Part shown: positions 8,767-63,701 of the stretch, in pieces
Numbering within the stretch: the first letter of the stretch is position 1
Layout: each line of letters starts with the position of its first letter
From: Scenedesmus sp. PABB004
Lineage: Eukaryota
Assembly: GCA_014905635.1 (NCBI GenBank)
Contig: JABVCE010000005.1
Location: forward strand, 1,240,001 to 1,304,000
Length of the DNA stretch: 64,000 nt
Reading direction: 5' to 3'
Notes under the pieces: generated by a model
Database searches by the model: none
Told to the model about the DNA's origin: nothing
The model's input: only the letters and a program-made list of their open reading frames with translations
Translations under genes and position numbers: made by a program

Positions 8767-10230
8767 CTACGACGCCGCGCCGCCGCGGAACAGCCGCCAG
8801 CCGCCGCCCGCGGCGTGCTGCTGCTGCGCCGCCGGCGCGTCCGCGGCCCCCGCCGCGTCCGCCGCCCTGGGCGGCGCGTTGGCCTTGTGTTCGAGCATGC
8901 GGCGGTGCCAGCACTCGAGCTTGAGCGCGTGCGCGCCGCTCGCCGTGTCCTTGATGGCGATCTGCATCGGCTGCCCGTCCAGCACCTGCGCCGGGCGGGC
9001 GGCGACGCGTGGGCGCGCGTTGACATCACCCACCCACACGCGCAAACGCGCACGCACGCACGCACAGCACACGCGGCAGACGCGCGCGCCCCCGGGGCCG
9101 CGCGCCTGCACGAGGTCGAGCTTGAGCAGCGGGAAGGGCAGGAGGAAGGTCGCGTAGTCGAGCGCGGCGTCATACAGCTCAAACGTCCACGTGTTGACCG
9201 TGTCGTAGCTCCGCCCCGCGCGGCCCGCGGGCGAGCCAAAGAGCGCGCGGCGCCGCGCCGCGCCCAGCGCGGCGCCACACGGCGCCGACAGGCCCGCGTC
9301 GTGCGCGCGCATGTCCTCGGCCGCGCCGAGCAGCGCCGGCGGCGCGCGGCCGGGCGGCGTGACGTGGATGGCCTGCGCCGCGGCGGCGAGGGGCGCGAGG
9401 ATGTGCGGGCGCTCGCCGGCCGGGGAGACCTGCACGCCGGAGCCCATCTTTGAGGCGAGCCACGAGCAGGCGCGCCCGAGCAGCGCGCCCGCGGGCAGCT
9501 TGAGCGGGCGCGCAAACTCGCTGCCAAGCACGAGCGCGTCAAATGACACCGGCTGCTTGAACCGGCCCTGCGCGGCGGCGCGGTCAGCGGCGCGGTGCGT
9601 GCGTCGGCGAGGCCGGCGGCACCGGCGCCGCCCCGCAGCGCAGCGCCCCGCGCGCGCGCGCACCTGCAGCGCGATCCACATGAGGCGCGCCTTGCCGTCA
9701 AACGCGGCCGCCACGTCCTCGGGCGTGTTGGGCATGCGCCGGAAGAGCACGACCAGGCGCCCGCTGAAGAGGGGCGTCTCCACCTCCACCGCGCGGGACA
9801 GGTCGTTGAAGGGCACCGTGCCGTGCGCGTCGCTCAGCAGCGGCGTGGCGGTCTGCGCGCGCGAGGCGGCGACGCCGCGCGTGAAACGCGCGCCTGGCCA
9901 GCCAGGCTGCGCCGCGGCGCCGCGCGGCTGCCCCACCTGCTGCGGCGCGCCCGGGGAGCGCAGGATGAGGTCGGCGCCGCCCTGGAAGGCGGCCAGCGGG
10001 GGCACGCCCGCGGCCGGGGCCGGGGCCGGCGGCAGCAGCGCCGCCACACACGCGCCCGCCACGGGCGGCGCCTTGCCCAGGCTGCCCGCGCGGCTCAGGG
10101 GCTGCTGCGCCGGCAGCAGCGCGCCAGCGCGGCTCGCAGTGTCGAGCGCTGGGCGGGCGTCGCCGTCGCGCGTGCGGGCGGTGGAGCTGGCCATCGAGAG
10201 CGGCGCCCACACGCTCGCCGCCTGCGGCAT
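8767..10230 (-). CDS. DUF1769-family protein (about 3 exons)
   Basis: VPFND..VEVETPLFSGRLVVLFR..FDGKARLMWIALQ/GRFKQPV..LVLGSEFARPLKLP and a downstream RRALF..WTFELYD..LDY motif match my recollection of DUF1769. The start codon (10230) is uncertain. Confidence 0.7.
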   Translation of the reverse strand: MPQAASVWAPLSMASSTARTRDGDARPALDTASRAGALLPAQQPLSRAGSLGKAPPVAGACVAALLPPAPAPAAGVPPLAAFQGGADLILRSPGAPQQVGQPRGAAAQPGWPGARFTRGVAASRAQTATPLLSDAHGTVPFNDLSRAVEVETPLFSGRLVVLFRRMPNTPEDVAAAFDGKARLMWIALQVRARAGRCAAGRRRCRRPRRRTHRAADRAAAQGRFKQPVSFDALVLGSEFARPLKLPAGALLGRACSWLASKMGSGVQVSPAGERPHILAPLAAAAQAIHVTPPGRAPPALLGAAEDMRAHDAGLSAPCGAALGAARRRALFGSPAGRAGRSYDTVNTWTFELYDAALDYATFLLPFPLLKLDLVQARGPGGARVCRVCCACVRARLRVWVGDVNARPRVAARPAQVLDGQPMQIAIKDTASGAHALKLECWHRRMLEHKANAPPRAADAAGAADAPAAQQQHAAGGGWRLFRGGAAS

Positions 10231-10848
10231 CGTATGGCTGCGTGCGGTGTCCCAGGAGGTGTGGCGCTGACTTGGGGGCGTGTCGCGCTTGGCGAAGGGG
10301 GCTGCGGGGCCGCCTGGAGCGCGACCAGGGCTGGGTGGGACCAAGGGCGAGCGGGGCGAGCGTGTGTCGCGCGTGGGCCGGGCGACGACGGCGCGACCCG
10401 CTCGGACGGTGGGGGAGATGGCGGGGATGAGGAGCGGCGCGCGTGATGAGGCGGAGGGAGGCCGGGCCAACCTTGAATCGCGCCACTGGGCCCGCGGCTG
10501 GCAAAACCTGCCACGGGCGCCCGAGCGCCCGCCCGACGCGCTGTGAGCTTCCTGGCAGCTGGCACACGCGGTGGGAACAGCGCCAGGCCGCGACGGGCGC
10601 GCGCGGGGCGGCGGCCCCGCGACCGCGCGCGCTCGCCGCCGCCGGCGCAGCGCGCCGGCGCACGCTCGGCCACAGCTCAGCGCAGCCACACAGTTCAGTC
10701 ACAGGCCCGCGACGACCCCGCTGACTACCCGCGCTGCGCGGCGCCGCGCGCGCGTCCGAGCAGTGCGCCCGCCCGCCCCCGCTGCCTGCGCCCGCCCCTC
10801 TCGGCCCGCGCCCGCCGCTCTCCCCCCGCGCCCGCCCGACCGCGCGCG

Positions 10849-14290
<3,442 letters not shown>

Positions 14291-15078
14291 GGTGGTTGGG
14301 CGGCGCCTGCGCGGCGAGCAGCGGCGGCGGCGCGGCGGCGCGCGGCGATCAGCTGCCCCCGGCCGGCCGCTGCGGCGGGCAAGGGATCGCGCTGTCGCCC
14401 TTCACTCATGCCCGGGGTGGGGCCCAGCGGCCCTGCCGCCGCCCCGCTGCGCGCAGGAGGGCGCGGGCGCGCGCGAGCCAGCAGCAGCGCCCGCCCCGCG
14501 CGCTGGGCGCCTGGCAGGGCGCGCTCATGCCGTGCGTGCTCAAGCTGGCGCCCGCTGCGTACCTGCCGCAGGAGTGGCGCGCTGGGTGCGTGGAGCGTGG
14601 GCAGAACGAGCGCGATGCTCGATGCTCGCCCGCGGGCGCTGGCGCCTGTGGCGTCGCGACCTGCCCCCGCTCGCTCGCTGTTTGCGTGCGCGGGAAAAAT
14701 GATGGTGGCGACAGGCCGCCCAGGGCGCGAGCCGTGCAGGGACAGCGATGATTGCCGCGGGCACAAGCGCAGTGCCCTGGGCGGCGTGCTCGGTCACGCC
14801 CGCCACCCGCGGGCCCGTAGCGCTTGCCCACCCACCAAACGCCCACCGCCACCGCCGCGTCGCGCGCGGGAGCGCCGCGCGCGCCTGGGCGCGCGCTCTC
14901 GCGCGCGCAGCACGCCGCGCGGTCGGCCGCGAGCTGTGTGTGCAAGCTCATCACTTGCGCCCTCGACTGGCTGAGCCGCGAGCCATTTACCGCCCCCATC
15001 TGCCGCCTCCTGCGCCGCGCGACCGCCCCGCGCGCCCCGGGCCCCGCCCAACCGCCCCAACCCCCGCCCGCCCGCCCC

Positions 15079-18693: not shown

Positions 18694-18737
<44 letters not shown>

Positions 18738-21700
18738 GGCGGCGGCAGCTGCGCCACGGGCGGCGGCCGCGGCGCCATGGGCGCGAGGCCAAGCTGCGCC
18801 AGGATGGCAGCCTCCTCCTGCCGGCGGCGCTGCTCCTCCGCCGCCGCCGCCTCTGCCGCCCCCTCGGCCGCCGGCGCGCGCTGCGGCAGCTGCTTGACGC
18901 GCCGCAGCGGGTTGGGCGCCAGCTCCGGCTGCGCCGCCTGCACCACCTGCGCGCTCGTGGTGGTGCTGCCGCTGCGGCGGGGCTGCGAGGTGGCGTCGTC
19001 GGCCACCTCGGCCACCTCCCGCGGCCCCGGCAGCCGCCAGCCCGGCGGGCGCCGCGCCTCGCCGCTGTCGAGCCGCAGCTTCTGCCTGCCGGGCAGCGCG
19101 CGCACGGCGACCATGCGCGGGTCCCGCGCGGGCTTGCGCGCGCCGCGCGCGCCGGGCCGCCGCTGCGGCCCGCGCCCCGCCCGCGGCGGGCGCCTGCTTG
19201 GCGCTGCGCGCGCGCTTGGCGGGCGGCGTTGCCGCGCTGCGGGTCGGCGGACGGGCGCGGCGGGCGGGGCAGGCCGTCGGGGCGTCAGGGCACGCGCGGC
19301 CGCCGCTGGTGGGCGCGGCCTGCGCCGCGCAGCGGGCCGCCGCCGCTACCCCCACGACGCACCGCGAGACGGTGACGCTGCCGTCCTCGGCGCTCGCCGC
19401 GCGCTTCGCCGGCACCGCGCGCCTCGCGCCGCCCTTGGCTGCGCCCGGCCTGGCGCCGCCGCCCTCGGCGCCGCCCTCGCGCCGCGCCGCGTCGGCGCCC
19501 GCCGGCGTGGACGAGCGGCGGCGCGCCGGCGCCTGGCCGCGGCCGCGCGCGCGCCGCTCCGCCTCGTCCCGCCGCTTGCGCTCGGCCGCGCGCGCCGCGC
19601 CCAGCAGCGCGGGGTCTGCCAGCGTGAGCTGCGTGTCAAAGTCGAGGCTGGGCGGCACGTTGAGGGACCCCTGCGCGGCGCGGCGGGCGCACGCGCGCGC
19701 CCGCGTCGCCGCCGCGGCCCGGGCGGCGGCTGGCGCTGCCCCTCTCCCCTGGCCGCCCGCCCGCCAGCGCGCCTCTCCCCGCCAGGCGGCCACCGCCGCA
19801 CCTCCTCAACCTTGCTGCTGCGCCACTTGCCGAGCAGCATGACCAGACCGCCCAGCCAGGCGTGCCGCTCCAGCCCGGGCAGCACCGCCGCGCCGAGCCA
19901 CGCGCGCGCGCTGGGCCAGGCGCCCAGGAAGGGCAGCGCCAGCGGCTCGAGCAGCGGGTGCGCCGGCGGCGCCGGCTGCTCCGCCGTCGCCGCCGCCGCC
20001 GGCGCCGCCTCGTCGTCCAGGGGCTGGGCCAGCAGCCGGCGCAGCGCGCGCGCCGCGGCACGCGCGGCCTGCTCGTCGCTCAGACCCGCCCGCCACGCGC
20101 CCGGCGCGCCGGGGCGGGTCATTGCCTTGACGTCGGCCGCCCACTTGACCCAGCCGCTGTGCAGCAGGTACAGGAAGCCGTCCACGCGCTGCTCCGCCGG
20201 CACCTGTGTGCACGCAGGGCGCTGGGCGCGCGGCACAGGGCGCAGGGCGCAGCGAGCCAGCGGGCGGGGCTCGGCGCGCGCGGCGGCAGCGCCGGCGGCG
20301 CACCCACCATCTGCGTGCGCGCCACGATGTGGGTCGCCTCGTCGCGCAGGTCGGGCGCGGGCAGCTCGGGGCGCACGGGGCCTGCCGCGGGCGCGGCGGC
20401 GGCGGCGCGCGGGTCGCGGGCCGGCGGCCGCGGCGGCCACGCGCGCGTGCTCTCTCTCGCGCGCGCTGCGCCCCCGCCGCCAGCCACCGTGCGCGCTCGC
20501 GCACCCGCCTCCACCATGGCGTGCAGGACGAACAGCAGCCAGAAGAGGGGGTCCAGCACCAGCAGCGGCCAGTCCTCAACACACGACACGTTGTGCCCCG
20601 GGTTGGGGTGCGTCGGCGCGCCCTGCGCCGGCGGCGGGGCGGTGAGGGGCTGCCGCGGCGCGTGTGAGCGCGACGCAGGGGCCGGGCTGCGCGCTCACCG
20701 CGAGCACCAGCAGCGCCGCGCGCAGCCGCGCCGCGCGCGTTGCCTCGGGGTCGCGCGGCGCCGCCGCCGCCGCCGGCAGCGCGGCCGGGGCTCCGCTGCA
20801 GCGGTCCTCGCGGTGCGCCAGCAGCTTGAGGTCCGCCGGCGACAGCCTGGCGGGCGAGCACGCGCACGGGCGGGCGGGCGCGGTTGCGGCGCGCAGGGGC
20901 CCGAGCTCGGCCGCGCCCACGGCGCGCGCCCGGCGGCTGCCGCGGCGCCGCGCACCGCTCCAGCTGCGCCTTGGCGTGCCGCGCCGCCTCGCGCGCCGCC
21001 GCCGACAGGCCGAACGTCCACTCCAGCTGGGCGGTCGGGAACGCCACCATCAAGCCGCGCCCGGCCGCCTCAGCCACCCTGGCGGCGGCGGCGGCGGCGG
21101 CGGCGCGCGTGAGCTGCCAGCAGCATGGCCGCCGCCGCCGCCGCCGCCGCGGCGCGGCCGCCCGCCCCGCCGCCCCTCGCCCACCCGTCCAGGTCGGCCT
21201 TCACGCGCGGGACGTCCCGCAGCGCCAGGTTGCCCCGCGCCGGCGCGGCCGCCGCGAGCACGCGCCGCGCCGCCTCGGCGCCCACGCGCGCCGACTCACG
21301 CCCCGCCAGGTTCTCATCAGCGAGCGGGCCGGCGGCCTCGCCACGCGCGGGCGCCCTGGGCGCCGCTGGCGCCGCCGGCTGCGTGGCCTCGTCGGCGCCG
21401 CCCGCGGCGGCGCCCGGCCCCGCGGCGCCCTCCGCCGGCACGCTGCCCTGCTGCTCGGGGCTGGGGCGGCTGCAGCTGCCGCCCGCGGTGCCGGCGGCGC
21501 CGCCGCCCGCCGCGGGGCTGCCCTCGCCCGCCGCGAGCGCGCCGCCGCTGCCGGCGGGGTCCTGGCTGCTGCCCGCCACGCCCGCCGTGGCGCGCGACGG
21601 GGCCCGGGGCGCCGAGAGGCCCGACAGCCGCGAGCCGGCGCGGCCGAGGCCCTGCGGCGCGCCCGGCTTGCCGCCCCTGCCGCCCGCCAGCCGGCTCGTG

Positions 21701-35614: not shown

Positions 35615-36284
35615 TTAGACCTCGACCGGCTCCTTGCGCCAGAGCCGCTTGACCGTCTCTGTGAGCCCCGGGCCGGCCAGGTTGACCTTCATTATGCCCA
35701 GGTAGGTCACCAGCGACGCACCGAGGATGGCCGCGCGCGCGGGCACTGCGCGGCGCCGCAGCCGCAGCCGGCGGGCGTGAGCCACGCCGCGCGGCGCCGC
35801 GCCGCGCCGCGCCGCCGGCGCCGCGCACCGCGGAAGCGCGTCGGCACGTAGTCTGTGACGAGCGCGTTGGTCGTGATGTGCATGTGCACCGGCACCGCCA
35901 CGGCGAGCGTCCAGTCGGCGAGCTTCTGCGTAAAGCCGTCCTGCGCGCGCGTCGCCGCGGCAGCGGGCGGCAGCCGGCTCGGCGCGGCGCAGCACCGCGG
36001 CCGCGCCGCCGCGGCAGCAGCAGCGGCCGCGCGTGCCTTGCTGGACAGCGCCGCCACCGGCACAGCGCCTGCGGCGTGCAGGGAGGCGGCGGTCGGCACG
36101 GCGGCGCGGCGGCGGCAGCAGCGGCGCCGCGCGGCGCGCGCCTGCGAGCGCGTAGTTGCTGAGCTCGTAGGCCTTCTGGAAGCCCGCCACATCGGCTGCG
36201 AGGCGGGGGCGGCGCGATGAGGCGCGGCGGGGCGGGCCCGGGCGCCCAGGCGCGCGCGGGCGCACCGGCGAGCAGCCGGTTCAT
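35615..36284 (-). CDS. SDH4: Succinate dehydrogenase membrane anchor small subunit (CybS/SDHD), 5 exons
   Basis: Spliced product MNRLLAADVAGFQKAYELSNYALAGAVPVAALSSKDGFTQKLADWTLAVAVPVHMHITTNALVTDYVP..LGIMKVNLAGPGLTETVKRLW; contains the HxH and TDYV motifs. Confidence 0.88.
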
Positions 36285-36596: not shown

Positions 36597-37671
36597 ATGC
36601 TTCGCTCCTCCGGCACCGCGCTGGCGCTGGTGGCGCGGCACCGAGCGGCCGGGCACCTCGCGGAGGCGCTCGCCGGCGGCGGCGGCAGCTGGGGCGCGCA
36701 GCAGAGCAGGCGCGCGCGCGCGGCAGCAGCGGCGGCGACAGCCGCGCCCGCCGACGCCTGCCGATCGTGCGCGGCGCGGCGGGCGAGACCGCAGCGCCGA
36801 TCGCCAGCTCTGCGGGTCCTCACCGGCCTCGCCAGCCGACTGCCGACCGCCGCCGCCGCCGCCGACTGCCGGCCGCCGCCGCTGCCGCCGCGCCGCCCGC
36901 CCGCTCGCCACGCAGGGGCCTCGGCGGCGACCGCGTGCCCGAGTACTTTGCCAAGCCCTCGCCCTACACCGAGGGCACCGCCTTCCTGGGCACGCCCGCC
37001 AACCACGACGACGTGCGGCGCGCGCCCCGGGCGGCGGCGGGCGCGCCCGCGCGGCGCGGCGCTGCGCGGCACGGACGCGCGCGCGCGCGACGCCCACGCG
37101 CCCCCGTCCGCGCCGCCGCCGCGGCCGCCGCGCAGCTGATCCAGAAGCGGCCGCTCTCGCCAGACGTGTTTGAGCTCGGCAATGCGCTGCAGCCGCACTA
37201 CAAGATGCCCTGGGGCGCCATCAGCTCCATCGCCAACCGCGCCACCGGCGCCGCGCTGTCGTTCAGTGAGCGCCCGCCGCCGCGCCGCCGCCGCCGTCGT
37301 TGCTGCTGCTGCCGCCGCCGCCGCCGCCGCGGCGCTGCGACTCGCGCGCCGTCACCGCCCGCCCACCGCTCACCGCCCGCGCGCCAGGCTTTGCCGCGGC
37401 CGGCTACGTCGCGCTCACGGGCGACCTGCCCGCCGCGCTGGACGCCTTCCGCGAGGGCTACCCGCTGCTGGCGTTCCCCGTGAAGCTGGGCATCACGCTG
37501 CCCCTGGTCTACCACTACCTCGGCGGGCTGCGGCACTTTGTGTGGGACCTTCACCGCATCGGCAACCAGGCCGACAAGTCGAGCCTGCTCGAGACGCCAA
37601 AGGTCGAGGCGAGCAGCCAGGCGCTGCTCGGCGCGGCGGCGGCGCTGAGCTTTGTCATCGCCCTGCTCTGA
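36597..37671 (+). CDS. SDH3: Succinate dehydrogenase cytochrome b560 subunit (SDHC), about 4 exons
   Basis: Arg/Ala-rich presequence, then KRPLSP, SSIANRATG and YHYLGGLRHFVWD; TGA at 37669-37671. Confidence 0.92.
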
Positions 37672-38229: not shown

Positions 38230-38998
38230 TCAGTCGGCGAGCACCTCGGGCTTGGTCGACAGCACGACCGCCACCGCGTCGTCGATGTCCTCCTGCGCGA
38301 CGCCCAGCTCCTGCAGCGTCGCGACAAAGTTCTCGCAGATGGCCTGCGCGCGCGGGTGTGGGTGCGGCAAGCGCGGCGCGCGGGCGCGGGCGTGGGCGCG
38401 CGGCGCGCGCAGGCGCCGCGCCGCGCCGCGCGGCCAGCGGTCGCGGCCCCGGGGCGCGCGCCGGTCACGTTGAAGTGGGTCTCGTTGAGGTGCGGCACCA
38501 GGTGGCGGTGCGCCTCAGCCATGCTCTTCCCGCTGTACTCGGCGGGGCCGCCGAAGGCCGTGGCCATGAAGGCGGCCTGGCGGAGCGGGGGAGTTCGGGT
38601 GAGTCGTGCGGCGCCTGCGGCGGCGCCGGGACCGTGACTGTGTCGGAGCGTTCCAGCCTCGCACCTGGTGCTTGCGCTGCTTGGCCATGTCCGTGCCCGA
38701 GAAGTACGACTTGACCCGCTCGTCGGCGAGGATCTGCGCGGCGGGGCGCAAGAGGGCTGGGCGGCGCGGCCAGGCCGCGCGCGCGGCGGGCGCTGCCAGC
38801 GGGCCGCGCCTTGGAGTAGAAGACGTCCACCGCCGCGGAGACCGCCGCGGGCCCGCCCAGGCGCTCGATCAGGGGCGCCCGCTTGCTGCCGCCGCCGTTG
38901 GGCGCCGCGCGGCAGGCCGGCGCGCGCAGGGACGGCGCCGCTGCGCGGCGCGCGGCCGGGCCGGCAGCGGCGGTGGGCGCGCGGGCGGCGGACAGCAT
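38230..38998 (-). CDS. Group I truncated hemoglobin (2/2 globin, GlbN/THB type) with N-terminal transit-peptide-like extension, 4 exons
   Basis: LIERLGGPAAVSAAVDVFYSK/ILADERVKSYFSGTDMAKQRKHQ/AAFMATAFGGPAEYSGKSMAEAHRHL..THFN/AICENFVATLQELGV. Confidence 0.93.
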
Positions 38999-39348: not shown

Positions 39349-41474
<2,126 letters not shown>

Positions 41475-48364: not shown

Positions 48365-51300
48365 CTACACCGCCGCCACGGCCGCGGGCGCGCCCGCCGT
48401 GCACTCCAGGCCGGGCAGCGGCAGCCGCGACGGCGCCATGGTTTCGAATTTGAAGTCGTAGCGCTCCGGCATGCCGCGGTGCGCAAAGCCCTCCCACCTG
48501 TCCCCCCACTCAAACGGCGGCTGCCCCTGCGCCGTCGGGCCGCCGACCGCCTCCGCCTCCATCGCCAGCGCGCGGCTGGCCGAGGTCACCTGCGCGGGGG
48601 GCGGTGAGCGCGTGTAGGCGCGGGCGCAGCGGCTGGCGCGCCAGCAGCGCCGCGCCGCGCGCCGGACGCGCGCGCGCCTTGGTGTCGTAGCCGCCCTTGG
48701 GGACAGCGAGGGGCTCCGCGCCCGGGGGCGCGAGGTCGCCGCGCCCGCACACGCTCGCGAGCGGGTGGCCGCCGCTGAGCGGGTCGGCCTGCCAGTCGTT
48801 GTAGCGCATGACCCGCGCCATGCCATCCAGGTCGGCCACGCCCGCCTGGTCGCGCCGGAAGATGCTCGCGCGCGGCGACACCTGGCCGTTGCACATTGGA
48901 CGGGGCGCGGCGGCGCGGGGGCACGGCGGAGCAGGGCGCAGGCCGGTGGGCGGCGCGCGTGCGGCCGCGGGCGCGCCAGGCCTCTGGCGCGCGCGCTGGG
49001 CGGGGCGGGCCGCGCTGCGGCGCGCGCGCTGGGCGGAGCGCGCCTGGTACATGAGCCAGCGCGCGGGCTGGTCGTAGGCCTTGCCCTTGGCGCGCGTCGC
49101 GTTGACGAGGTCGGGGTAGCCGGCGGCGGCGTAGATGGCGGGGAAGAACGCCACGTTGTACGACGGCCAGTGCCCCCGCGCGAGCACCTGCCGAGCGGCG
49201 CGCGGTCGGCGCGCGGTCGGCGGCGGCCGGCGCGCCCTCCCTCGCGGCGCGGCGGCCGCGCAAATCGCGCGCGCGCGGCCGCGCGCCTGGGTCATGTCCG
49301 CCGCCTCGACCATGCCCGGCAGCTGCTCGACCACCCACAGCAGGCCGTCCCTGAGCTGCTGGCGCGGCTCAAAGCGCTTGAGATCGACGACCATGTATTG
49401 GTTGTTGTACGTCCCGCTGTTGTGGCGGCGGAAGACGTCGACCCAGGCCGACCCGCTGCCGGCGAGCAGGTTGGCCGCGCGCACGCGCATCCAGCTCGGC
49501 ACGCTCGCGGGCGTGAGCGCCTGCGCGCGGGCGCGCGCGCGGCGGCGCGGGCGGCTCGCGGCCGCGCCGCGCGCGGCGTGGCGCGGCGGCCGCGAGCCCC
49601 GCGCGCTGCTCCTGCGCCTGCGCGGCGCGCGAGCCCCGCGCGCTGCTCCTGCGCCTGCGCGCCTTGAAGAGGTCTGGGTTGAAGATGTGGTTCGTGGTCT
49701 CCAGCACCACGAGCCCCCCGCTGGAGATGTAGAAGTCATCGTCGCTGAGAAGCTCCCCCGGGTAGCTCGAAAAGCTCAGCGACTGCCCCACCACGCCGCC
49801 CGGGACCTGCGTAAGAGCGGCGCGCGTGCGTGGGACGCAGCGACGCAGCAGCGGCGGCGGTGGCAGCGGCCGAGCGGGCGGCCGAGCGGGCGGGCACGCG
49901 GGCGGCCGCGCAAGCGCCCGCGCCTGTGTGAGGGCGAGCTCGTAGTGCTTGTAGATGCGGGTCATCGCGGTGTAGCTGTCCCAGGTCGAGTGGCCGAAGA
50001 AGATGTCGCTCAGGTCGGCGGCGACCTTGACCAGCGCGCTGCACTTGCCTGGGAACAGCAGCGAAGCGAGCGACGATGGACGGCAGCAAACGACGGCGCC
50101 GCCCTCACCGGCGCGCTGCCCGCGGCGCGGCGCGGTGCGGCACGGCGCGGCGCGCGCCGCACCGAGCGTGGCGAGGTGCGTGAAGAGCTCGGCCGGGCCC
50201 ATCGCGTCGCGGCGCGCCGCCGCGGCGTGTGCGTCGTACATGTCGAGCACGTCATACAGCTCGCCTGTGGGGCGGGGGGGGGGGGGGGTGGCGGTGTTGG
50301 TGGGCGGAGGTGGGCGGGGTCTCGACGGGCAGGTGGGCGGTGTGCGACGCGGGCGGGGCGCAGCGGCGCACACGCGCGCGCACAGCACACAGCACGCGCG
50401 CGCACCGTTGGAGTTGAGGAAGACAACGCCCTCGCGCGTGAGCCGGTGCTCGTGGTGCGGCGCGCCCGCCGCGGCGCCGCCGCCGGCCTCGCGCGCGGCG
50501 GCCGCGCTCGCGGCGGCCGCGGCGGTCATCGCTGCGTCGTAGCCCTCCCACAGGCCGTCCAGCTGCGCGAGCAGCAGCGCCATGACGCGCCAGTAGGGGT
50601 CGGACGCGCGCGCTGCGGCCTGGCGGCGCAGCCACGCCTCCTGCTTGGCGATCCTGCGCGCCGCGGCGCCGCGCGGCGGCGGCGGGCGTCGCGCGCGGCC
50701 GCGCCACACCACGCCCGCCGGCGCCCGCCGCCCTGACGACATCGCGTAGCGCCACGCCTCGCCGCGGCTCACCACTGCATGGGCTTGTCGAGCTTAGCGT
50801 CGAGCTGATGGATGAAGTAATGCTTCAGGTTGTGGTGGTGGTCGTTGATGCGCGCCGCGCTGAGGTAGCCCTCCAGGAACCCCGCGGCGGCTGCGGCGCC
50901 GGCGCCAGCCCCACCCCACGGCGGCGGCGGCGCGTGAGCCGGCCGGCCAGCGGCGGCGGCGGGTGCGGCGGCGGGTGCGGCGGCGGGTGCGGCGCCGCCG
51001 CACCGAGCTGCTCCGCGTCCGGCACGCCCGCCGCCGTCACGATGCGCAGCTTGCCAAAGTTGCTGGCCGTGAACGCGCTGTCGACGTACACGCCGTGCGC
51101 GAGGGCACCTGCAGGGGCGCGCGCGTCCAGGGGCGCGAGTGCGTCGGGCGCGGCCGCCGCCGCCGCGGGCTCGGGCGTGAGCGCTGCCTCACTCTGCCGC
51201 GCTCACCCGGCACCACGCCCTCCGCGAAGACCAGCCGCCCATCGCGGTCGCGCATGGCGCTGCCAACCACGGCCTCGTCCTCTAGCACCTCGCCGCACGC

Positions 51301-51414: not shown

Positions 51415-51660
51415 CCGTCCGGCGCGGAACCGCACTAGTGCGCCCGCCGGGCAGGGACGGAGCGCGCAGGGACGGCACGCAGGGGCGGCGCGGCGCGCGC
51501 TGCTGCCGCCTCGCTGGCGGGGTATCAATGACGGCTCTGTCGCAGCGAGAGCGCTTGTGCGCTCAGCAGCGATGTGGGGGGACAACGGGACCGCGAGGTG
51601 TTGCAGGCGCTCGCGTCGGCGCGAGCGGCGGCGCAGGGCTCGGCCGCCGCCGCCGCGGTC

Positions 51661-54417: not shown

Positions 54418-55005
54418 ATGGTGCTGCACAGCCGCGCCCCCGCCGCTGCGCCAGGGCGGCGGCTCGCAGCAGCGGCGGCAGCGGCGCGCAGCAGCAGCTC
54501 GCGCTGCGGCGCTCGGGCCGCCGGCGATGCGCCGCGGCGGCAAGCGGCAGCGGTGCCGGTCCTGCAGACGCAGGTGGAGCTGCTGGAGCTGAGGGCGGCG
54601 GCAGCAGCGGCAGCGGTGGGACGGGGGGCGGCGGGGGCAGCGGTGGTGGCGGCGGAAGCGGTGGCGGCGGGAGCAGCGGCGACGCCAGGGCCTTCCCAGT
54701 GTGGTACACGGTGAGAGCCGCCGGCAGGCCAGCGGGCGCGCGGCCTGCCGCGGCCCAGCGCGAGCTGGGCCAGCCACAGCGCCGGCGCGCGCGCGCAGGT
54801 GTGGATGTGGGCGACGGCCGGCACGTACCTCGCCTGGCGCTGGCGCTGGCGGCGCGACCGGCGGCTGGCGGCAGAGGCGTTTGCGCGCGAGCAGGCGGCC
54901 GACGCGGCGGCGGCCGAGGACTGGCAGCGCTTCGCCGCGCGGTACGGCGTGGGCGGCGGCCGCGGCGCGGCGGCGCCGCCGCCGCACGACCGGCCCGCAG
55001 GGTAA
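54418..55005 (+). CDS. Possible small two-exon protein with a single hydrophobic segment
   Basis: ATG at 54418, probable intron ending CAG at ~54798, last exon VWMWATAGTYLAWRWRWRR..EDWQRFAARYG, TAA at 55003-55005; no homology recognised. Confidence 0.35.
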
Positions 55006-55053
55006 GGGCGCGGCACGTTGGTTGCACGCGGGGAAAGAGGGGGCTCGCTCTCG

Positions 55054-55619
55054 TCAGCGCTGGAAGCAGCAGCTGAGGCAGGGCACATCCATCTGATGTG
55101 TCACCACAGCGCAGGTGACGTCCCGCATCGGCGTCGCGCCGGGCTCAAAGTCGGCCACGCCCCGGCCGCCGCCTGCGGCGCGGACGAGCGAGCACGCGGC
55201 GGCGTGGGCAGCAGCGCGGCGGCGGCAGGGGGCGGCAGGGGGTGGCAGGCGCCCGCCGCCGCACCCGGGCGCTCGTGCTCCAGCAGCAGCGTGAGCTGGC
55301 GGTGCTGCTCGAGCAGGCACTGCCAGCGCACGAGCAGCTCCGTGCGCCGCGCGGTGAGCCCGCCCCCGCCGTCGCCGTCGCAGTCGGCGCGCTTGCCGTC
55401 CGCCGGCGCGGCCGCAGCGCCGGCCTCCGCCTGCGCGAGCGCGCGAGACTCCGCGACCAGCTCCGCCTCCGCCGCCCGCAGCGCCGCAGCGGCGGCCCGC
55501 AGCTCGCCCAGCCGCTCCTGGGCGTCCTCGGAGCCGGCCGTGACCATTGCCTGCGGCTGCGGAGCGACGCGCAGCGCATCGCTGGCGGCGAGCGGCGCCC
55601 AGCGGAGCGCCGTGTGCAT
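55054..55619 (-). CDS. Possible small coiled-coil protein (two exons)
   Basis: EDAQERLGELRAAAAALRAAEAELVAES..ELLVRWQCLLEQHRQLTLLLEHE with a probable intron at ~55175-55264; start at 55619 or 55547. Confidence 0.35.
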
Positions 55620-56295
55620 GGTGGCGTGCAGGGACGGGCGGGCAGCTCGAAGCTCCGGATGGCCCGCGCGGAGCACGATCCGCAGCGCGCAGCCGCGGCA
55701 GGACGGCCAGGCGCCGCGATCGGCCGTGCGCGTCGCGGCGGCGCGATTCCAGTTCCGCCGGCGATCAATGAATGTGCACCGAGCTCGCGTGGAAACGGCG
55801 TGGCTGGGCGGCTCTGGGCTGGTCGCGACCATCGGCCGGCGGCGCGGCTCGCCGGCGTGCCGCCGAGCGCGCGGTCAAAAACCCTGCGCGACTGGTCGGC
55901 CGCCGCTGCTGCCGCGCGCAAGAGGGAGGTTCGAAAAGGCGGCGCCGCAAGCAGGCCGGGTTCGTGATGTTGTTTACACCGCCATTCTCTCCTCGCTGTC
56001 CGCCAGCCCGCGGCTGGCGTTACGCTTTGCAGCGTAGCGTGGGGCGGCAGGCGTCGCAGCCTGCCCCGCGCGTGCGGGCGCGCGTGCTCAGCCGTCTAGC
56101 ATGCAGCGCCCGCGCGCGCGTGCCCGGCGGCGCGGGGGCGTTTGTGCAGCGCCCGCCGCGCCGCTCGCGTCGCGCGGGGGCAATGTCGTTGGCGGAATCG
56201 GCACACGCGGTTCACGCACAATCACTGAGTGGGGGGCGTATGTACAGCGCGCCCGTCCGGGGCGCGCCCCGGCGAGGGGGCGCGTCGCGCGGCGC

Positions 56296-59213
56296 TCAGG
56301 CCTTGACCTCGAGCTTGACGCTGGGCTTGTCAACGGTGATCTTCTTCTCACCGTCCTTGTCCAGCAGGCCCGCCACGCGCACGCTCGGCTGCTGCACTGA
56401 GAGCTGCATCGCGGGGATCAGGACCTGCAGCGCCGGCGGCGGCGGCGGCGGCGGCGGCGCGTGAGAGGGCGGCGGCGGCGGCGGCGGCGCGGCGGCGGGG
56501 CGCGGCAGCGGCGCTGCGCTGAGCCGCACCTTGGTGTCGTTGCCCGAGTGCAGGCGGGAGAGGTCGATCACGTTCACACCGTCCTGACCGGGGCGGGGCG
56601 GCGGGGCGGGGCGGGGCAGGGCGGCGGGGCGGGTCGGCGGCTGCTGCTGCCCGCGCGCCGGCCGGCGGGCAGCAGCCCGCAAAGCGCCAGGTGCCAATTG
56701 CTGCCAACGCCGCTGGGTGCTGCGGCGGCGGCGGCGGCGGCTGCGCGCCGCGCCGCCCGCCCAGGCCGCCCGTTCTGCGCCGCACCTTGGTGGTGGTGTT
56801 CTTGGCCACCTTGAAGCCGGCGGCGTTGAGCACGCTCATCACGGTCGAGCTCTTGAGGTCCAGCTTGGCCTGGGCCAGCTCCTGCAGCGCCGCGAGGTCG
56901 ACGCTCGGCAGCTGCGCGCGCACGCGGCGGGCGGGCGGGCGGGCGGCGTCAGCGGCTGCGGCCGCGCCGGCTGCGCGCCAGGCCGCCCCCCGGCTGCGCG
57001 CCGCCGCCGCCGCCGCGCGCTGCTGTGCTGCAGCAGCGTCCGGCGCCGCCCCGGCCCCGGCGGGCGCGCGCCTTGATCTCGGGGATGTTGATCGTCCAGG
57101 TCGCGGGCTCGGGCTTGTTGAGCACCTGGTCGGCGACCTTGGCGAGCGCCTCGAGGCCGGGCACGGTGACGGTCGGCAGCGACATGCTCACGGGCTTGGA
57201 GAGCGCGAGCGAGACGAGGCTGCTCACGTCGGGCAGGCTCAGGTTGAGGTCGGGCTTGGCGAGCGCGAGCTTGGCGAGGCCGCTGAGGTCGATGGTCGGC
57301 ATGGAGAGCGCGGGCATGCTCACGTTGTGCTTGGCCAGGAGGCCGGTGAGCGCGGAGAGGTCGACGGTCGGCTTGACAAAGAGGCTGGTCAGGCCGCTGA
57401 GGTCGACGTCGGGCATGCTGATGTTCTTCTTCAGCAGCGCGGCGAGGCCGCTCAGGTCGACCTCGGGGATGGTCACCGCGGGGATGGTGAGCGTGGGGAT
57501 GGTGAGCGAGGGGATGGCGAGCGTGGGGATGGAGAGCGTGGGGATGGTCGGCAGCGTGTGGTTCTTGGCCAGCAGCGCCACGAGGCCGCTCAGGTCGACG
57601 TTGGGCTTCTGCAGCAGGCCGGCGAGGCCGCTGAGGTCGATGCTCGGCTTGGTGAGCAGGCCGCTGAGGTCGATCGTGGGCAGGCTGGAGTTCTTGGACA
57701 GCAGCGCGAGCAGGGGCGTGAGGTCGGGCATCTCGGGCTTGCTCAGCGCCGGGAGCTGGGGCAGCTCCACCTCGATCTCGATGTTGGGCTTGTTCAGCAG
57801 GCTCGTGAGCGCGCTGAGGTCGAGGTCCGGCACGCTCAGGCTGGGCGTGAGCGCGGTCTTGGCCATGCCGAGCGCCTCCATGAGCGCGGCCTTGTCCTTG
57901 GCGGCCATCTGGGGGATGGTGATGTTGGGCTTGCTCAGCAGCGCGGTCAGCAGGTCGGCGGCGTCGACGTTGATGCTGGGCTTGAAGCCGCTGAGGTCGG
58001 GGATGGTCAGGTTCTTGGACAGCAGGCCGGTCAGGGCGCTGAGGTCGAGCGTCGGCACCTGGATCTTGGGGATGGTCAGGTCCACCTTGGGCAGCGACAC
58101 CGTCGGCTTGGACACGATCATCTTGGACAGCGCCTCGACCGCGGGGGCGGTGACCGAGACGTTGACCTTCTTGGACGCGAGCGCCATGAGCGACTGCACG
58201 CTCGGGAGGTCGAGGTTGAGGTCGGGCTTGGCGAGCACGAGGTTGGCCACGGCGCTGAGGTCGAGCTGGGGGAAGCTCGGCAGCGAGATGCTGATGTTCT
58301 TGCTCGGCTTCTCAAAGTTGGACAGGAAGGCGTTGATGTACTCCAGGTGGTTGGGCATCTGCATCGGCGCACAAACGCGCGGGCGCGTGGGGCGCGCGGG
58401 CACGTGGGCGGCGCGGCCGGGCCCGCGCCCGCGGGCGCGCGCGCGCTCGCGGCGCTGCTGCGCCCCGGGGTCTGCTGCGCCGCCGCCCGGCCTCTGCGCC
58501 GCCCCGCGCCCGCCCGCACCTGCAGGCCGCCGGTCGCGGCGGGCTGCTTGGCGAGGAAGCCGTTCACGCGCGCGGTGATCAGCTCGGTCAGGCCCGACAC
58601 GTCGACGGTGGGCTTGGCCAGCAGGCTGCTCGCCACGGCGCTCAGCGCGCTGAGGTCGGGCATGGTGAGGTTGGGCTTCTGCGCGGGCACACACACGCGC
58701 GCGCGCACGCGTGCACGCGCGGCGGTGGCGTGAGCGCGCGGGCCCCAGGCGCGCGGCCCCGGCGCCGGCGCCGGCGGCGGCGCGCGTGCGAGCGCGCGCG
58801 CGCGCGCCGAGGCAGCGCCCGCGCCCCCGCCCGGCGCCGGACTGCCGCGCGCGCACCTGCAGTAGCGCGGTGAGGCCGCTCAGGTCGACGTTGGGCTTCT
58901 GCAGCAGGCCCGACAGCGCGCTGAGGTCGACGGTCGGCACGGTGATGCTGATGTTCTTGTCGCCGCCCGGCAGGGACAGCTTCGGCATGCGCGGCAGCTT
59001 CACGTCCGGCATCTTCATGTCCGGCAGCTTCACCTCGGGCATGGACACGCTGGGGATCTTGATGTCGGGGATCTGCAGCGTCTTGGTCGGCAGCGTCACC
59101 GTGACCGACGGCTTGTCGGCGCCGGTGCTGCTCTTCTCCACGCTCACGTCCAGCGCGCTGGTGCCGGCCGCCAGGCACAGCAGGCCCAGCAGGGCGAGCG
59201 AGGTCGCCTTCAT
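56296..59213 (-). CDS. Secreted repeat glycoprotein with KPxxDLSxLxxLL and xPxxx pentapeptide repeats; multi-exon, family not recognised
   Basis: Signal peptide MKATSLALLGLLCLAAGTSA; well-biased codons; long repeat exon at 57072-58361; many NxS/T sequons; TGA at 56296-56298; TGTAA (minus strand) at 55974-55978. Confidence 0.85.
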
Positions 59214-60091
59214 CCTGGCGGAGCGCGCGCGTGCGGCGGCCTGCGGCGCGGGCGGGGCGGGCCGGCGCGCGCGCGGGATGGCGGGAGGCGCCCGAGTCGG
59301 CACGGCGGCGCTGTCGCGCCGTGGGGCGGCCCGAGCGCATGCGTCAGGAGCCCCCCGAGCTCCTGGCGCTGGGCGATGCGCCGTTGCCGAGCGTGGGCGG
59401 CCGGCGCAGCCCAACCGCGTCCGGGCTGGCGCCGGCGCGCACGGGCGTCGCCCGCCCTGGCCGCCGCGCTGAGAGCTGCCGGTCGGACAGTTCGTCTCAA
59501 CGTGGCGCCGGCGGCGCTCGCGGCGCACCCGGTGGGCTCGACGCGGGGCTGGCTGGGGGGCGCGCTCGCGGTGCGGGCCGATTGCGAGCGCGTTTTGCGC
59601 GCCTGAAGGGTGGGGGGGACTAGCTGAAGCCTTGGCGCCCACGGGCATGGCGGCGCGGGCGACCGGCGCGACACGGGGCGGGGTTTGCGCCAACTGCGCT
59701 GGCGGCCAAGCGTAACGGGACGCGCTCCCGACTCTGCAGCGAGCCTTTGGACGCCCAGGAAGTGCAATTGCATGGCCGCGTTCGCCGCGCGGGGGCTTGG
59801 GGCCCGCTGGCCGCCGCGGCGGCGGGCAGCGCGCGGCGCGGAAGGCTGCGCAGCGCGGCCGCGCCGCCGCTGCGCTGCGTGGCTCCTTTGACCTCAAGAG
59901 AGCGGGATCAGAGCACGGAGGTGTCATCCGTGCCTCGCCGCCGCCGTTACCAGCGCGCCCGGCCCGCCGCCACGATCCGCCGCGATCCGCCACGCCGCTG
60001 CCAGCGCTGGCCGCCCGCCGCCTCCCCAGCCAGCCTCCTCCGCCGCCCCGCCGCCCCTCCTCCGCCCCCGCCGCCGCGCCCGCGGCCGCCG

Positions 60092-63000
60092 CTACTGGTG
60101 CAGCAGCGAGTTGAAGAGGTGCAGCGTGACCTTGGCCTTCTTGGCGAGCGGCTCGGCGCCCGGCAGCGAGGCGACGAGCGCCTTGAGCGCGGCCATCACG
60201 CCCGTGAGCACGCCTTTGAGGTGCGGCGCGGTCGTGGCGTCGTGCGGGTCGAGCACGGGCGCCGCCTCGGCGAGCCACGCGAGCTTCAGCGCCGCGTTGG
60301 CGTCGTTGCGCAGGTCCGACGCGAGCTGGTGCACGAGCGACAGCAGCGTCGGCTGGCTCAGCGCGAGCGGGCTGCCGCCGAGCACGAGCGCGGGGTCCAC
60401 CTGCGGCGCGGCGCGGCGCGGCGCGCCGCGGCGGGCAGTGAGCGGCGGGCGCACGCGCGCTGGGCGCGCCCGCGCGTGCGCCCGCGCCGCCGCGGCGCGC
60501 GCCTGCTTGCAGGTCCACAGCACCACGTCGAGGCTGGCGGTGTTGAGCGCGCGCACGAGCGCGTCCTCATACTTGCGCACGCCCAGCAGCGTGCTGATCT
60601 CCAGCCGCGGGTCGGCCGCGGGCGCGGCGCGGCCCGCCTCGAGCTGCGCGACGCTCAGCGCGCCGCCGCCGGAGCCCGCCGAGCGCTCGGCGGCGGTGCT
60701 CGCGAGGCGGCTGAGGCTGCGCGACGTGTCGGCGAGCTCGCCGCGCATGCCCGCGACCACGCCCTGCAGCTGCGCGACGCTCGCGTTGAGCGCCGCCGCG
60801 GCGTCGCCCTGCGCCGCCGACACCGCGCGCCCGCTGTCGGCCAGCCACGCCGCAAACGCGCCCTCCACCTGCCCAAACATGACCTGCGTCGCGCGCTCAA
60901 AGGCCGGGATGATCGAGCCAGCAAAGTTTTCCCGCAGCGCCTCGTGCAGCGGCCGCGCGAGGCTGCCGGCGAGCGAGCGCTCCAGCACCGCCTGCAGGCC
61001 GCCGCCTGCCACCACACGCGGGCGCGGGCGGCGCGGCGCGGTGAGGGCCGTACACGCCAGCGGCGGCGCGGCGCGGCTCCCGCGCTGCGGCGCGGCGCTC
61101 CCGCGCGCCCACCCGCGCCGCCGGCGAGCTCGTGCTGCAGCGCGCCCGCCACCGCCTGCGCCACTGCGGGCGTGACCGCGTTGACCGTGGCCGCCACCGC
61201 CGCGCGCGCCTGCTCGCGCGCCGTGTCCGCCATCGCCTTGACCAGGCCCGCCTGCAGCGCCGACGACAGCTGCGCGGCGGCGGGCGCCGGCGCGGCAGCG
61301 GCGCGGCAGCCAGCGCATCAGCGAGCGGGCGCTCGCTGATGCCCGCGTGGCCAGCCGCGGCGCCAGGGCGCAGCCCAGCCCGCCGCGCGGCGCGGCGCGG
61401 GCCGCACCTGGCCCAGCTGCGCGGCCAGCAGCTTCTCGAGGTCGGCGCGCTCCTTCGCGGCGGCCTTGCGGCGCTCCTCCTCCGCGCGCTTGGCCTGCGC
61501 CTTGAGGCTGGCCTCGACGCCCTTGGCGAGGCTGGCCTCGCTGCCCTTGAGCGCGGCCTTGACGCCCGCGACCGTCTGCTGCGAGCTCGCCGCCAGCGCC
61601 GCCGCGAGGTCGTGCTGCATCGCCAGCAGCGCCTGCATCTGCTGCTGCAGCGCCGCGACGTCGCCGCCGGCGGGCGGGGCGCCCGCCTTCTCGGCGCTGT
61701 GCAGCAGGCTCGTGGTCGGCATCGGCGGCGGCGGCGCGGCCGCGGGCGGCGCCGCGCTGGCCGTCGACTCCTCCGACGCGGACGGCGCAGCGCCGTTGGC
61801 CGCCTCGGCAGGCTCCTCCTCCTCCACGGACGCGGGCTCCTCCGCCACCGCCGCCGGGCCGAGGCGGCCGCCTCGGCCGCCGCCGCGGCCGCCGCGGCCG
61901 CCTTGTCGGCGGTGCGCTGCTTCTCCAGCCGGCTGCCGTGCAGCAGCAGCCCGGGCGTGGGCAGCTGCGCGGGCGGCGGCACCGCCGCGGACGGCAGCAC
62001 CGCCTCGACCGCCGGCGCGGCCGGCTCGGGCTCGGGCTCCGGCTCCGCCACCGCCGCGGGCTCGGGCGCCGGCGGCTCGGCCGCCGCGGCCGCGGGCTCC
62101 GGCGCTGGCGCCGGCACGGGCGCGCTGCTGCTGCTCGCCTCGTCGCCCGGCTCCACGCCGTCCTCGCCGCCGGGCGGCGGCGCGCAGAGCGCGGGGCTGA
62201 GCACGTACTGCTGGATCGCGTCGGTCTGCACCGTGTAGAGCAGCAGCTGCTGCGGCGCGACCTCGCCCGGCACGGCCTGGCTCTCGACCGCCTCCAGCCC
62301 CGGCGTGAGGCTGAGGATGGGCTGCTTGACCGCGAAGAACGCGGCGTAGTCGAGGCCGCCGCCCGCGACCGGGCCGGGCGCGAGCGCGTAGTGCAGCGTG
62401 TACACCTGCTTGCGCACCGTGTTGGCCAGCACCACGAGCCCGAGCTCGCGCTGCACCACGGCGTGGCAGAAAAAGTCGGGCGCGCCCTTGGCCGACGTGA
62501 AGGCGACCGACTGCAGGCACTGCGGCGCCGCGCCGGCGGCGGCGCCGGCGCGCGCGAGGCGCCAGAGCTTGAGCGCCGCGTTGGTCGCGTCGCCCGTGAG
62601 CAGCAGGCTGCTGCCGTCGAGCGCCTGGGCGAGGAAGTGCAGGCTCGCGACGCCGCCGGGCGCGGCAAAGGGCGACCACGACAGCAGCGGCGCGCCGGCC
62701 TCGTCGTCGCCCTCGAGCCACCACGCGTGCACGCGGCCCGCGCTGTCCGCGGCGGCGAGCAGGTCGCCGAGCGGGCTGAACGCGACCGCCGTGACGTCGC
62801 CGCCGCCCGGCGGCAGCGTGTACGTGATGCCCGGCAGCGCCGGCGCCGGCGGCTGGCTCGCCGGCGGCGACGTGGGCACCTCGAAGATGTGCACCGCGCC
62901 CGCCGCACCGGCGGCGAGGATCTGGGGCGTCGTCGGGTGCCACGCGAGGCGCACGAGGCTCGCGCCCGGCGCGCCGCCCGGCGGCAGCGCGAGCTGCGCG

Positions 63001-63701
63001 GTCAGCAGCAGCACCTCGGCCGGCACGGCGTCGCCGTCGGGGCCGGGCGCGTCGCTGACGGCGCGCACGGCGACGTCGCCGTTGCGGCTCGCTGACGCGA
63101 GCAGGTCGGGCCCGCCCGCCGCCGCGGCGCCGTCGGGCGGCGCAAAGAAGGCCATGTGGCTCAGCGCGGACGTGTGGCCCTTGAAGAGCGCGCGCGACGC
63201 GGTGTTGCGGTTGAGCGCGCGGATGTGGCCGGCCTTGAGGCCGTAGCAGATGTAGGCCGCGCTGATCGCGACCTGCTGCGTGTGCTCGAGCGCGTAGTCA
63301 AACTTGAGCAGCGTGATCGGCTGCACCTGCGCGCGCGCACGCCGCGGACGCAGCGGGCAGTGGTCGGCGCGCCGGCGCCGGCGGTGCGCGGCGCGCTGAC
63401 GGGCGGGCGCCGCTGCCGGCGGCGGCGACCGCTGCTGCCGCGGCCGCGGCCGCCGCGCCGCGCCGCGCCGCGCCTGCAGCTCCGGCACGGCCTCGCCCGG
63501 GCGCAGGGCGTCCAGGTCGATGGTGACATCGCTCCCCGCCAGCGCGCGGCCGGTGGGGCTGGGGCCCTTGGCTGCGGTCGACACGTTTGCGCTCGCGGCC
63601 AGCGCCGCCGCCGCCGTGCTCGCAAACTGCAGCCCCGCGGCGCCGTCCGGCGTGGGCCCGGCGTCGGCGCCCTTTTTCTTGTTGAACAGTCCCCCGAACA
63701 T
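60092..63701 (-). CDS. VCS: Enhancer of mRNA decapping 4 / VARICOSE (WD40, linker and C-terminal helical domain); multi-exon with apparent frameshift near 61860
   Basis: VQPIT..QVAISAAYICYGLKAGHIRALNRNTASRALFKGH, LAWHP, LANTVRKQVYTLH, IIPAFERATQVMFGQV, LSQPTLLSLVHQLASDL..KLAWL. Confidence 0.92.

Follow-up and report, generated by a model that had tools for sequence, protein, structure and literature searches.

Are introns that begin with GC common in the green alga Scenedesmus sp. PABB004 and, if so, why? The question is raised by a 64-kb stretch of its genome (contig JABVCE010000005.1, positions 1,240,001 to 1,304,000; hereafter the window), the only one analysed, on which all window-wide shares given below rest. 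A first-pass annotation had listed 17 frequent GC-AG introns here, each named below by its first intron base. Protein homology fixes 12 of these sites at residue resolution, which bears out that the introns are real, and the remaining five are less secure. GC donors amount to about a quarter of the scorable donors in the window. They very probably belong to ordinary U2-type GC-AG introns that have become common under extreme GC pressure and are tolerated only in an otherwise optimal donor context.

The base composition of the window is 80.2% G+C; to our knowledge, published green-algal genomes have a ceiling of approximately 70% to 72%. Across 2076 validated codons, GC content is 72.0%, 50.6%, and 96.6% at the first, second, and third positions, and the interiors of validated introns are 85.8% GC with merely 5.7% T. 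Several acceptors are preceded by C-rich runs in place of the usual T-rich tracts. The nearest protein relatives are found in the chlorophycean Sphaeropleales (Tetradesmus, Scenedesmus, Raphidocelis, and Monoraphidium; identity 44% to 68%), and by these similarities the host is a chlorophycean green alga.

At 80% GC, stop codons occur too seldom to mark where exons end; exons were therefore traced with a purpose-written spliced aligner of proteins to genomic DNA (BLOSUM62), in which the permitted donor and acceptor ends can be selected. This aligner puts an intron exactly at 11 of the listed sites: five in the phospholipase B gene (PLB), three in a gene for a peptidyl-Ser galactosyltransferase (SGT), two in EDC4, and one in a gene for a tRNA U5-methyltransferase (TRM2). 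The claim that PLB alone holds five GC-AG introns was thereby confirmed at the listed coordinates. The twelfth site, 38809, is fixed by contiguous exon matches to solved globins. Once joined, the exons at these 12 sites reproduce the unbroken sequence of homologous proteins or solved globins, which is indirect evidence for precise exon joining. The acceptor is CAG in all 12 of the validated GC introns, and the length of six of them is not a multiple of 3, so these six cannot be translated through and must be removed.

The contribution of GC donors is evident by the alignment scores. PLB aligned to the homologue P0001 scores 1896 with no splice rule, 1874 when introns may start with GT or GC and end with AG, and 1395 with GT-AG only. 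Allowing GC in addition to GT raises the score from 1386 to 1676 and from 1330 to 1583 for SGT, from 2319 to 2533 and from 2281 to 2415 for EDC4, and from 779 to 921 (P0052) and from 826 to 852 (P0050) for TRM2. Gene models restricted to GT thus cost 26 to 479 alignment points, in keeping with the earlier warning that standard predictors would mis-model these genes. When each of 15 second donor dinucleotides was added to GT, GC was the best with both PLB homologues tried.

The end letters were ignored altogether in a pair test, in which all frame-preserving donor/acceptor pairs within 45 nt of the 11 aligned sites were scored. The listed GC..AG pair scored highest in 24 of 32 site-by-homologue tests, where no other tied pair both started with GT or GC and ended in AG, and it lay 1 to 21 points under the maximum in the other eight. 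Every one of the 11 sites came top with at least one homologue. In 28 of 29 tests, the best GT-AG alternative fell short by 13 to 91 points; only 49923 with P0007 departed from this.

Within PLB, the intron at 48677 was recovered at the same exact place without any splice-site constraint, and its junction (YDTK^VTSAS) agrees with three homologues; at 88 nt, it is not a multiple of 3 and must be removed. The pairs at 48677, 49043, and 49286 each scored highest in three of three tests. The best GT-AG alternative at 49043 is 50 to 59 points below, and the flanks of 49286 match P0001 at 11 of 12 residues on either side. For 49662, the listed pair was top with P0007 and no more than 5 points short of the best score with P0001 or P0005, its GT alternative being 63 to 91 points lower. 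Site 49923 came top with both P0001 and P0005, but P0007, a more distant homologue, gave a GT alternative 113 points versus 111 for the listed pair.

In SGT, no frame-preserving GT-AG alternative to 12469 lies within the search range in any of three tests. The junction at 13188 (MRTDME^AYKDSGD) has identical residues in P0019, and a rival GTGGGG located 12 nt downstream would add four residues at a score 13 to 14 points lower. At 13882, the GT alternative is 51 to 57 points lower. The 301-nt intron of 12469 contains a long CA/TG microsatellite (12170 to 12300, minus strand) that translates as THTHTH. In EDC4, 60502 has the top pair score in three of three tests. The junction at 40279 in TRM2 is matched by both P0050 and P0052, the GT alternative is 36 to 42 points lower, and the positions of the Pfam profile run on unbroken across the intron. 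A short-period repeat occupies 40913 to 41119 in the 5ʹ part of the methyltransferase gene region, where the alignments contain poly-Q and poly-A coding sequence.

For the truncated haemoglobin gene, three exons were searched singly against solved structures. They match residues 2-23, 24-46, and 49-83 of the cyanoglobin 2ksc_A and residues 44-65, 66-87, and 90-123 of 1dly_A. The first two matches abut at 23/24 and 65/66, respectively, and so place the 38809 junction between adjacent residues. Pfam gave no usable match for the short haemoglobin exons 1 and 2 when these were searched singly.

A separate line of evidence comes from the surroundings of the donor word. AGGCGCG is present 74 times on both strands, so the word alone proves nothing. 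An exon-end context test was therefore applied, which requires, with 60-nt flanks, coding potential upstream, a same-frame drop downstream, and a CAG 45 to 400 nt on that restores coding in phase. AG/GCGCG passed in 16 of 74 cases, compared with 6 of 328 for six control AG/GCnnn words (Fisher p = 1.2e-8), and GCGCG without a preceding AG remained at background (55/2890). Among GT donors, GTGCG passed in 31 of 333 cases, GTGAG in 10 of 103, and GT with a base other than G at +3 in 15 of 2260. The homology evidence is independent of this test. A further AG/GCGCG that passed, at 19772 (minus strand, phase 2), has a consensus GT donor 29 nt away (19801) and is a doubtful candidate that probably passes by proximity.

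Table 1. Introns of the GC-donor set and the phospholipase B gene, in positions of the window; lowercase letters of a donor are exonic.
Feature	Position	Strand	Length (nt)	Donor (exon/intron)	Details
Phospholipase B-like gene	48392..51282	-			10 introns fixed by homology, five GT-AG, then five GC-AG
PLB GT-AG donors	51206, 51003, 50772, 50405, 50162	-			spliced alignment
PLB GC-AG intron	48590..48677	-	88	aag/GCGCGC..GCGCAG/gtg	phase 0
PLB GC-AG intron	48882..49043	-	162	cag/GCGCGC	phase 0; junction WLMYQ^VSPRA
PLB GC-AG intron	49188..49286	-	99	cag/GCGCGC	phase 0; junction AADMTQ^VLARG
PLB GC-AG intron	49521..49662	-	142	aag/GCGCGC	phase 0; not a multiple of 3
PLB GC-AG intron	49807..49923	-	117	cag/GCGCGG	phase 0
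GC-AG intron, peptidyl-Ser alpha-galactosyltransferase-like gene	12169..12469	-	301	aag/GCGCGC	
GC-AG intron, peptidyl-Ser galactosyltransferase-like gene	13010..13188	-	179	gag/GCGCGC	
GC-AG intron, peptidyl-Ser galactosyltransferase-like gene	13736..13882	-	147	cag/GCGCGG	junction THMAPQ^YAYNA
GC-AG intron, EDC4/Ge-1 gene	60401..60502	-	102	cag/GCGCGC	junction WTCKQ^VDP
GC-AG intron, EDC4/Ge-1 gene	63327..63473	-	147	cag/GCGCGG	junction VPELQ^VQPITLLKFDY
GC-AG intron, tRNA (uracil-5)-methyltransferase gene	40147..40279	-	133	cag/GCGCGC	junction YQYMQ^VEGAFSQPN
GC-AG intron, truncated haemoglobin gene	38734..38809	-	76	aag/GCGCGG	context test passed
Probable GC-AG intron, repeat-rich protein gene	56912..57071	-	160	aag/GCGCGC	
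Plausible GC-AG intron, SDH4/CybS gene	36069..36141	-	73	gcag/GCGCGC	phase 1; reading of three frames
Plausible GC-AG intron, SDH4/CybS gene	35941..36036	-	96	aag/GCACGC	after 32-nt micro-exon
Probable GC-AG intron, Duc1-domain gene	8986..9105	-	120	cag/GCGCGC	context test passed
Ambiguous first intron, SDH3 (Sdh_cyt) gene	36710..36915	+			GC donor 36710 or GT donor 36767

The donor rule is strict. Exonic AG precedes all 17 of the listed positions, 16 of which read GCGCG and one GCACG (36036), exactly as first described. Among donors that pass the context test, AG occupies -2/-1 in 16 of 16 GC donors and in 10 of 41 GTG[CA]G donors, and +3 to +5 is GCG in every one of the GC donors. The GC donors thus echo the local GTGCG and GTGAG donors and in addition require the exonic AG, as had been proposed, and the rest of the donor is nearer to consensus than in GT introns, the compensation characteristic of U2-type GC-AG introns. 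Within the permissive word AG/GYG[CA]G, 16 of 26 donors are GC and 10 are GT. The GC donors are in phases 0, 1, and 2 in 14, 1, and 1 cases, respectively. Codons here almost always end in G or C, so that AG mainly ends Lys, Gln, and Glu codons, which explains why nearly all GC-AG introns are in phase 0; in the 2076 codons, AG falls in positions 2-3, 3-1, and 1-2 in 234, 10, and 70 instances.

U12-type introns carry an [AG]TATCCTT-like donor motif. The donors here read GCGCG[CG] or GCACGC and at no site GCATCC, the donor given for U12-type GC-AG introns by PMC1557818, and Chlorophyta are reported to have no minor spliceosome (PMC11347168); on donor sequence, these introns are not of the U12 type. 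A branch-point-like C[TC][CG]A[CT] lies 8 to 60 nt 5ʹ of the acceptor in 11 of 13 GT and 8 of 16 GC introns, compared with 18% to 28% of random windows, a weak signal. On the acceptor side of the 25 validated introns, the following exon starts with GT (junction ..AG^GT..) in 7 of 12 cases after GC-AG introns (examples among the sides checked are 48589, 48881, 49187, 60400, and 63326) and in 1 of 13 after GT-AG introns. An introner-like repeat family was also considered and rejected, as all-versus-all blastn of 29 introns returned only low-complexity matches of 14 to 90 nt, equally between GT and GC introns.

How frequent GC donors are depends on which introns are counted. They make up 12 of 25 validated introns, 24 of which are fixed by homologue or solved-globin matches and one of which (GT intron 38468) is placed by reading frames; the genes concerned had been chosen because the first-pass annotation flagged them. 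Window-wide, the context test yields approximately 15 GC and 42 GT donors once neighbours and one gene-end artefact are removed, hence the share of about a quarter. A high share had been claimed and is upheld, although the figure of 15% to 20% given with it is somewhat below the roughly 25% estimated here. The 16-to-1 split of the listed sites between the strands follows from the distribution of donors in general, as the minus strand carries 34 of the 41 GTG[CA]G donors that pass the context test. An ab initio parser (periodic Markov model with donor and acceptor matrices) found every one of the 25 validated donors and all but two of the 17 listed sites, but it merged genes, and its count of 76 GT and 60 GC introns was rejected, since decoy donor models (five GC matrices and one exon-side matrix) yield 48 to 60 "GC introns" as well.

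The route by which such donors would arise can be outlined. G/C pressure, acting through mutation bias or biased gene conversion, would drive T to C at donor position +2. The change would be withstood where the remaining donor pairs well with the splicing RNAs, that is, with exonic AG at -2/-1 and GCG at +3 to +5, the latter the local optimum common to the GTGCG donors. The outcome is a single strict donor word, AG/GCGCG, at about a quarter of introns. A comparison of orthologous donors in lower-GC relatives had been proposed, and a metagenome scan with the EDC4 alignment supplied one locus (L001), from a relative at 65% GC, in which the intron at the same position and phase as 63473 reads ccg/GTGCGG in place of cag/GCGCGG. 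We infer from this that the change ran from GT to GC. GC pressure as its cause, which was also part of the original proposal, fits the window composition, the third-position GC, the scarcity of T in introns, the GT orthologue in L001, and the haptophyte and pelagophyte precedents discussed below.

Other explanations account for some of these observations. The spliceosome itself might have changed, as the first-pass annotation had suggested, by way of an altered U1 5ʹ end, U6 ACAGAGA box, or U1C, and might now accept C at +2 as readily as T. The very high GC-donor share for a green alga would fit such a change, as would the excess of GC over GT (16 to 10) within AG/GYG[CA]G and the dominance of C at +4 in both donor classes, unlike the usual GTRAGT. 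However, GC donors occur only with AG at -2/-1 and GCG, and GCGCG without AG stays at background, whereas GT donors accept any exon context; a machine indifferent to +2 would not need such compensation. GTGCG-type donors are, moreover, described for Ostreococcus (PMC2483917). A changed spliceosome is therefore improbable, and altered U1, U6, or U1C is not required, because confinement to the strongest context is textbook compensation for a penalised C at +2. The same context speaks against the idea that GT donors acquired their C at +2 through faulty assembly or base calling, for which the difficulty of sequencing extremely GC-rich DNA could be invoked. Errors would hit GT donors at random, and the probability of finding AG at 16 of 16 given 10 of 41 is 1.6e-10; GCG at +3 to +5 is likewise present in all GC donors. 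Random T-to-C errors are thus excluded by the strict context, and error as a general explanation is hardly credible. A near-identical contig (57041 to 57238) from sequencing run X1 lists no difference at the 57071 donor, which carries little weight as the donor lies approximately 30 bases from the contig end, a zone in which differences may go unlisted. Run X1 (freshwater metagenome DNA, share 0.06) contains mostly short matches from other GC-rich organisms, together with three near-identical pieces of 158 to 217 nt at a depth of approximately 2 that represent the organism or a close relative.

It could also be argued that many of the stretches are not GC-AG introns, being translated as in-frame low-complexity insertions or spliced from a neighbouring GT. 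Six of the 12 validated introns are multiples of 3 without stops and can be read through, GT rivals exist at 9105 and 36710 with a weak one at 13188, and the 48 to 60 introns that the parser made with decoys illustrate how readily spurious GC..AG pairs arise from DNA of this composition. Yet the other six validated introns shift the frame, all 12 break conserved protein cores exactly where the homologues run on, a single donor word is joined to CAG at 12 of 12 acceptors, and GT alternatives delete or insert conserved residues, all of which makes this explanation very improbable. The reading of the sites as GC-AG introns under GC pressure nevertheless has several points to its debit. Removal of these stretches from RNA is something that we infer through protein homology only, and the homologues used are mostly predicted proteins themselves. 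Five of the 17 sites lack homology proof, two of them (9105 and 36710) with credible GT rivals. Over the whole PLB gene, GT plus CG, one base along the GCGCGC run, scores just 37 to 45 points below GT plus GC, so homology fixes the place of the junction to a few bases and the GC-AG reading of its ends also leans on known GC-AG biology and the constancy of the AG acceptor. For the context test, training used the four genes in which 11 of the 12 validated sites lie (38809 contributed only its intron, to the non-coding model), and positions are resolved to approximately 20 nt; with the 12 validated sites set aside, 4 of 62 pass versus 6 of 328 (p = 0.058). Finally, the share of a quarter is drawn from one window, and the direction of change from one orthologous intron.

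GC-AG introns are a minor class in most genomes, amounting to 0.4% to 0.9% of introns in five model species (Sheth et al. 2006, PMC1557818) and to a mean of 1.2% over 121 plant genomes (PMC6310983). Compensation for the +2 mismatch with U1 is described in the same survey of model species and by Churbanov et al. 2008 (PMC2490688). As set out in these sources, U2-type GC-AG introns in general resemble those of the window in their GC start and AG acceptor, in a donor that is nearer to consensus on both exon and intron sides than that of GT introns, and in switching between GT and GC at orthologous positions. They differ in that here approximately a quarter of introns are involved, the consensus is GCGCG and not GCAAG or GCGAG, and almost all are in phase 0.

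High shares have been reported in algae outside the green lineage. In the haptophyte Emiliania huxleyi, 56% of 241 curated junctions are GC-AG, some of them confirmed by RT-PCR, which was ascribed to a genomic GC content of 65% (Feldmesser et al. 2014, PMC4028052). Like the present alga, E. huxleyi is GC-rich, has a large GC-AG share, keeps the AG acceptor, and has genes that GT-centred predictors mis-model. Its share, verified by expressed sequence tags and RT-PCR, is higher at a lower GC content than in the green alga studied here, in which the evidence is based on homology, and a strict AG/GCGCG context and a phase bias like those shown here were not found described for E. huxleyi. The pelagophytes Aureococcus anophagefferens and Pelagomonas calceolata have 14% to 17% predicted GC-AG introns (bioRxiv 10.1101/2024.10.30.620910), likewise attributed there to high genomic GC, and a lower-GC relative has 0.32%, paralleling the GT orthologue in L001; these algae are stramenopiles, and the figures are annotation-based predictions. 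The same conjunction of high GC and a GC-AG share far above 1% is found here in a single window.

Within the green algae, Ostreococcus lucimarinus has GTGCGTG donors (Irimia and Roy 2008, PMC2483917) and thus shares G, C, and G at +3 to +5 with the GTGCG donors of the window and their GC variant. Its donors are of the GT type and belong to an intron-poor genome, and GC-AG introns go unmentioned in the text of that paper. Pucker and Brockington 2018 (PMC6310983, supplementary files 7 and 8) count major non-canonical junctions, comprising GC-AG plus AT-AC, at 496 of 8831 (5.6%) in Micromonas pusilla, 36 of 5375 in M. commoda, 19 of 33104 in Auxenochlorella, and 19 of 67746 in Monoraphidium neglectum. 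With 0.03% to 5.6%, these four green algae, at 64% to 66% GC, all fall far below the share in the window, although the values come from annotations, in which GT-only predictors may have lowered them. The first-pass annotation had cautioned that frequent GC-AG introns might already be known from GC-rich algae; this is so, but publications were found for non-green algae only, no report for green algae being found in a literature search that covered few subscription journals. The case is a further lineage that shows a known effect of GC pressure, and its context rule is clean.

The link between genomic GC and GC-AG introns is thereby extended from haptophytes and pelagophytes to green algae and to a more extreme composition. 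The rule that GC is tolerated only in AG/G_GCG also accounts, via codon usage, for the phase-0 bias, and the share of GC among donors in a permissive context offers a simple measure of GC pressure versus splice-site selection. For this and similarly GC-rich algae, gene prediction fails if donors are limited to GT: in the tested genes, half of the introns would then be misplaced and conserved residues deleted or inserted. A bolder extrapolation, which we hold as a tentative possibility somewhat short of even, is that a quarter or more of introns are GC-AG genome-wide, a higher share than any known in green plants and algae, with T to C at +2 near saturation where AG and GCG permit; it could include a subtly altered U1 or U6. 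If true, the alga would be a natural titration of the donor mismatch that a standard spliceosome tolerates under extreme GC pressure.

Among the five less secure sites, 57071 has the strongest context scores on both flanks, and the peptide across its junction (INIPEIK^LPSVDLAAL) gives an ungapped alignment with LTIPKIQVPTLDLSAL, a repeat within the same protein. The gene (56296 to 59213, minus strand) encodes a long repeat protein with a signal-peptide-like start and units of approximately 20 residues such as KP.VDLSGL..LL.K, for which no Pfam family was matched. At 9105, the Pfam Duc1 match stops at the final exon residue, and the rival ctc/GTGCAG lies 6 nt upstream. Site 36141 in SDH4 passed the context test and has no frame-preserving GT-AG alternative. 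Site 36036, the sole GCACG donor of the set, follows the micro-exon (36037 to 36068, minus strand) between the two GC donors, which is too short for the context test but brings the frame back into the CybS-matching exon. Judged from the reading frames, both SDH4 sites are plausible GC-AG introns. Searched against solved structures, one SDH4 exon gave a weak match (E = 1.3) and the other none, and Pfam searches of short single exons gave no usable match for the SDH4 upstream exon or the Duc1 downstream exon. Site 36710 narrowly failed the context test (U = 8.8) and has a consensus atc/GTGCGC in frame 57 nt downstream; the intron lies in the unconserved presequence of SDH3, the Sdh_cyt match being in the last exon.

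SDH4/CybS (35618 to 36284, minus strand) and SDH3/Sdh_cyt (36597 to 37671, plus strand), which encode the two membrane anchor subunits of succinate dehydrogenase, are arranged head to head. Their start codons are approximately 310 bp apart, which suggests that they may share a bidirectional promoter. One EDC4 intron absent from the original list (61006 to 61118, minus strand) lies in a Gly-rich stretch and can be read with ggc/GCGCGG at 61106 or 61118, neither after AG, or with cgg/GTGGGC at 61112; the ab initio parser selected the GT donor.

Genes were located by running Pfam profiles on minus-strand stop-to-stop frames. On that strand, these identified genes for a Duc1-domain protein, a galactosyltransferase-like protein with a ShK domain, a zinc-knuckle protein, SDH4/CybS, the tRNA (uracil-5)-methyltransferase, phospholipase B, an AMP-binding enzyme, and EDC4/Ge-1; the truncated haemoglobin and the plus-strand SDH3 were added by reading. 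No Rfam family, snRNAs included, was detected at gathering thresholds within the window. The best eukprot homologues of three window genes are numbered 11811, 11815, and 11820, and the Tetradesmus homologues of PLB and EDC4 share one contig, which suggests that the neighbourhood (genes at 12 to 14 kb, 48 to 51 kb, and 60 to 64 kb) may be conserved within the Sphaeropleales.

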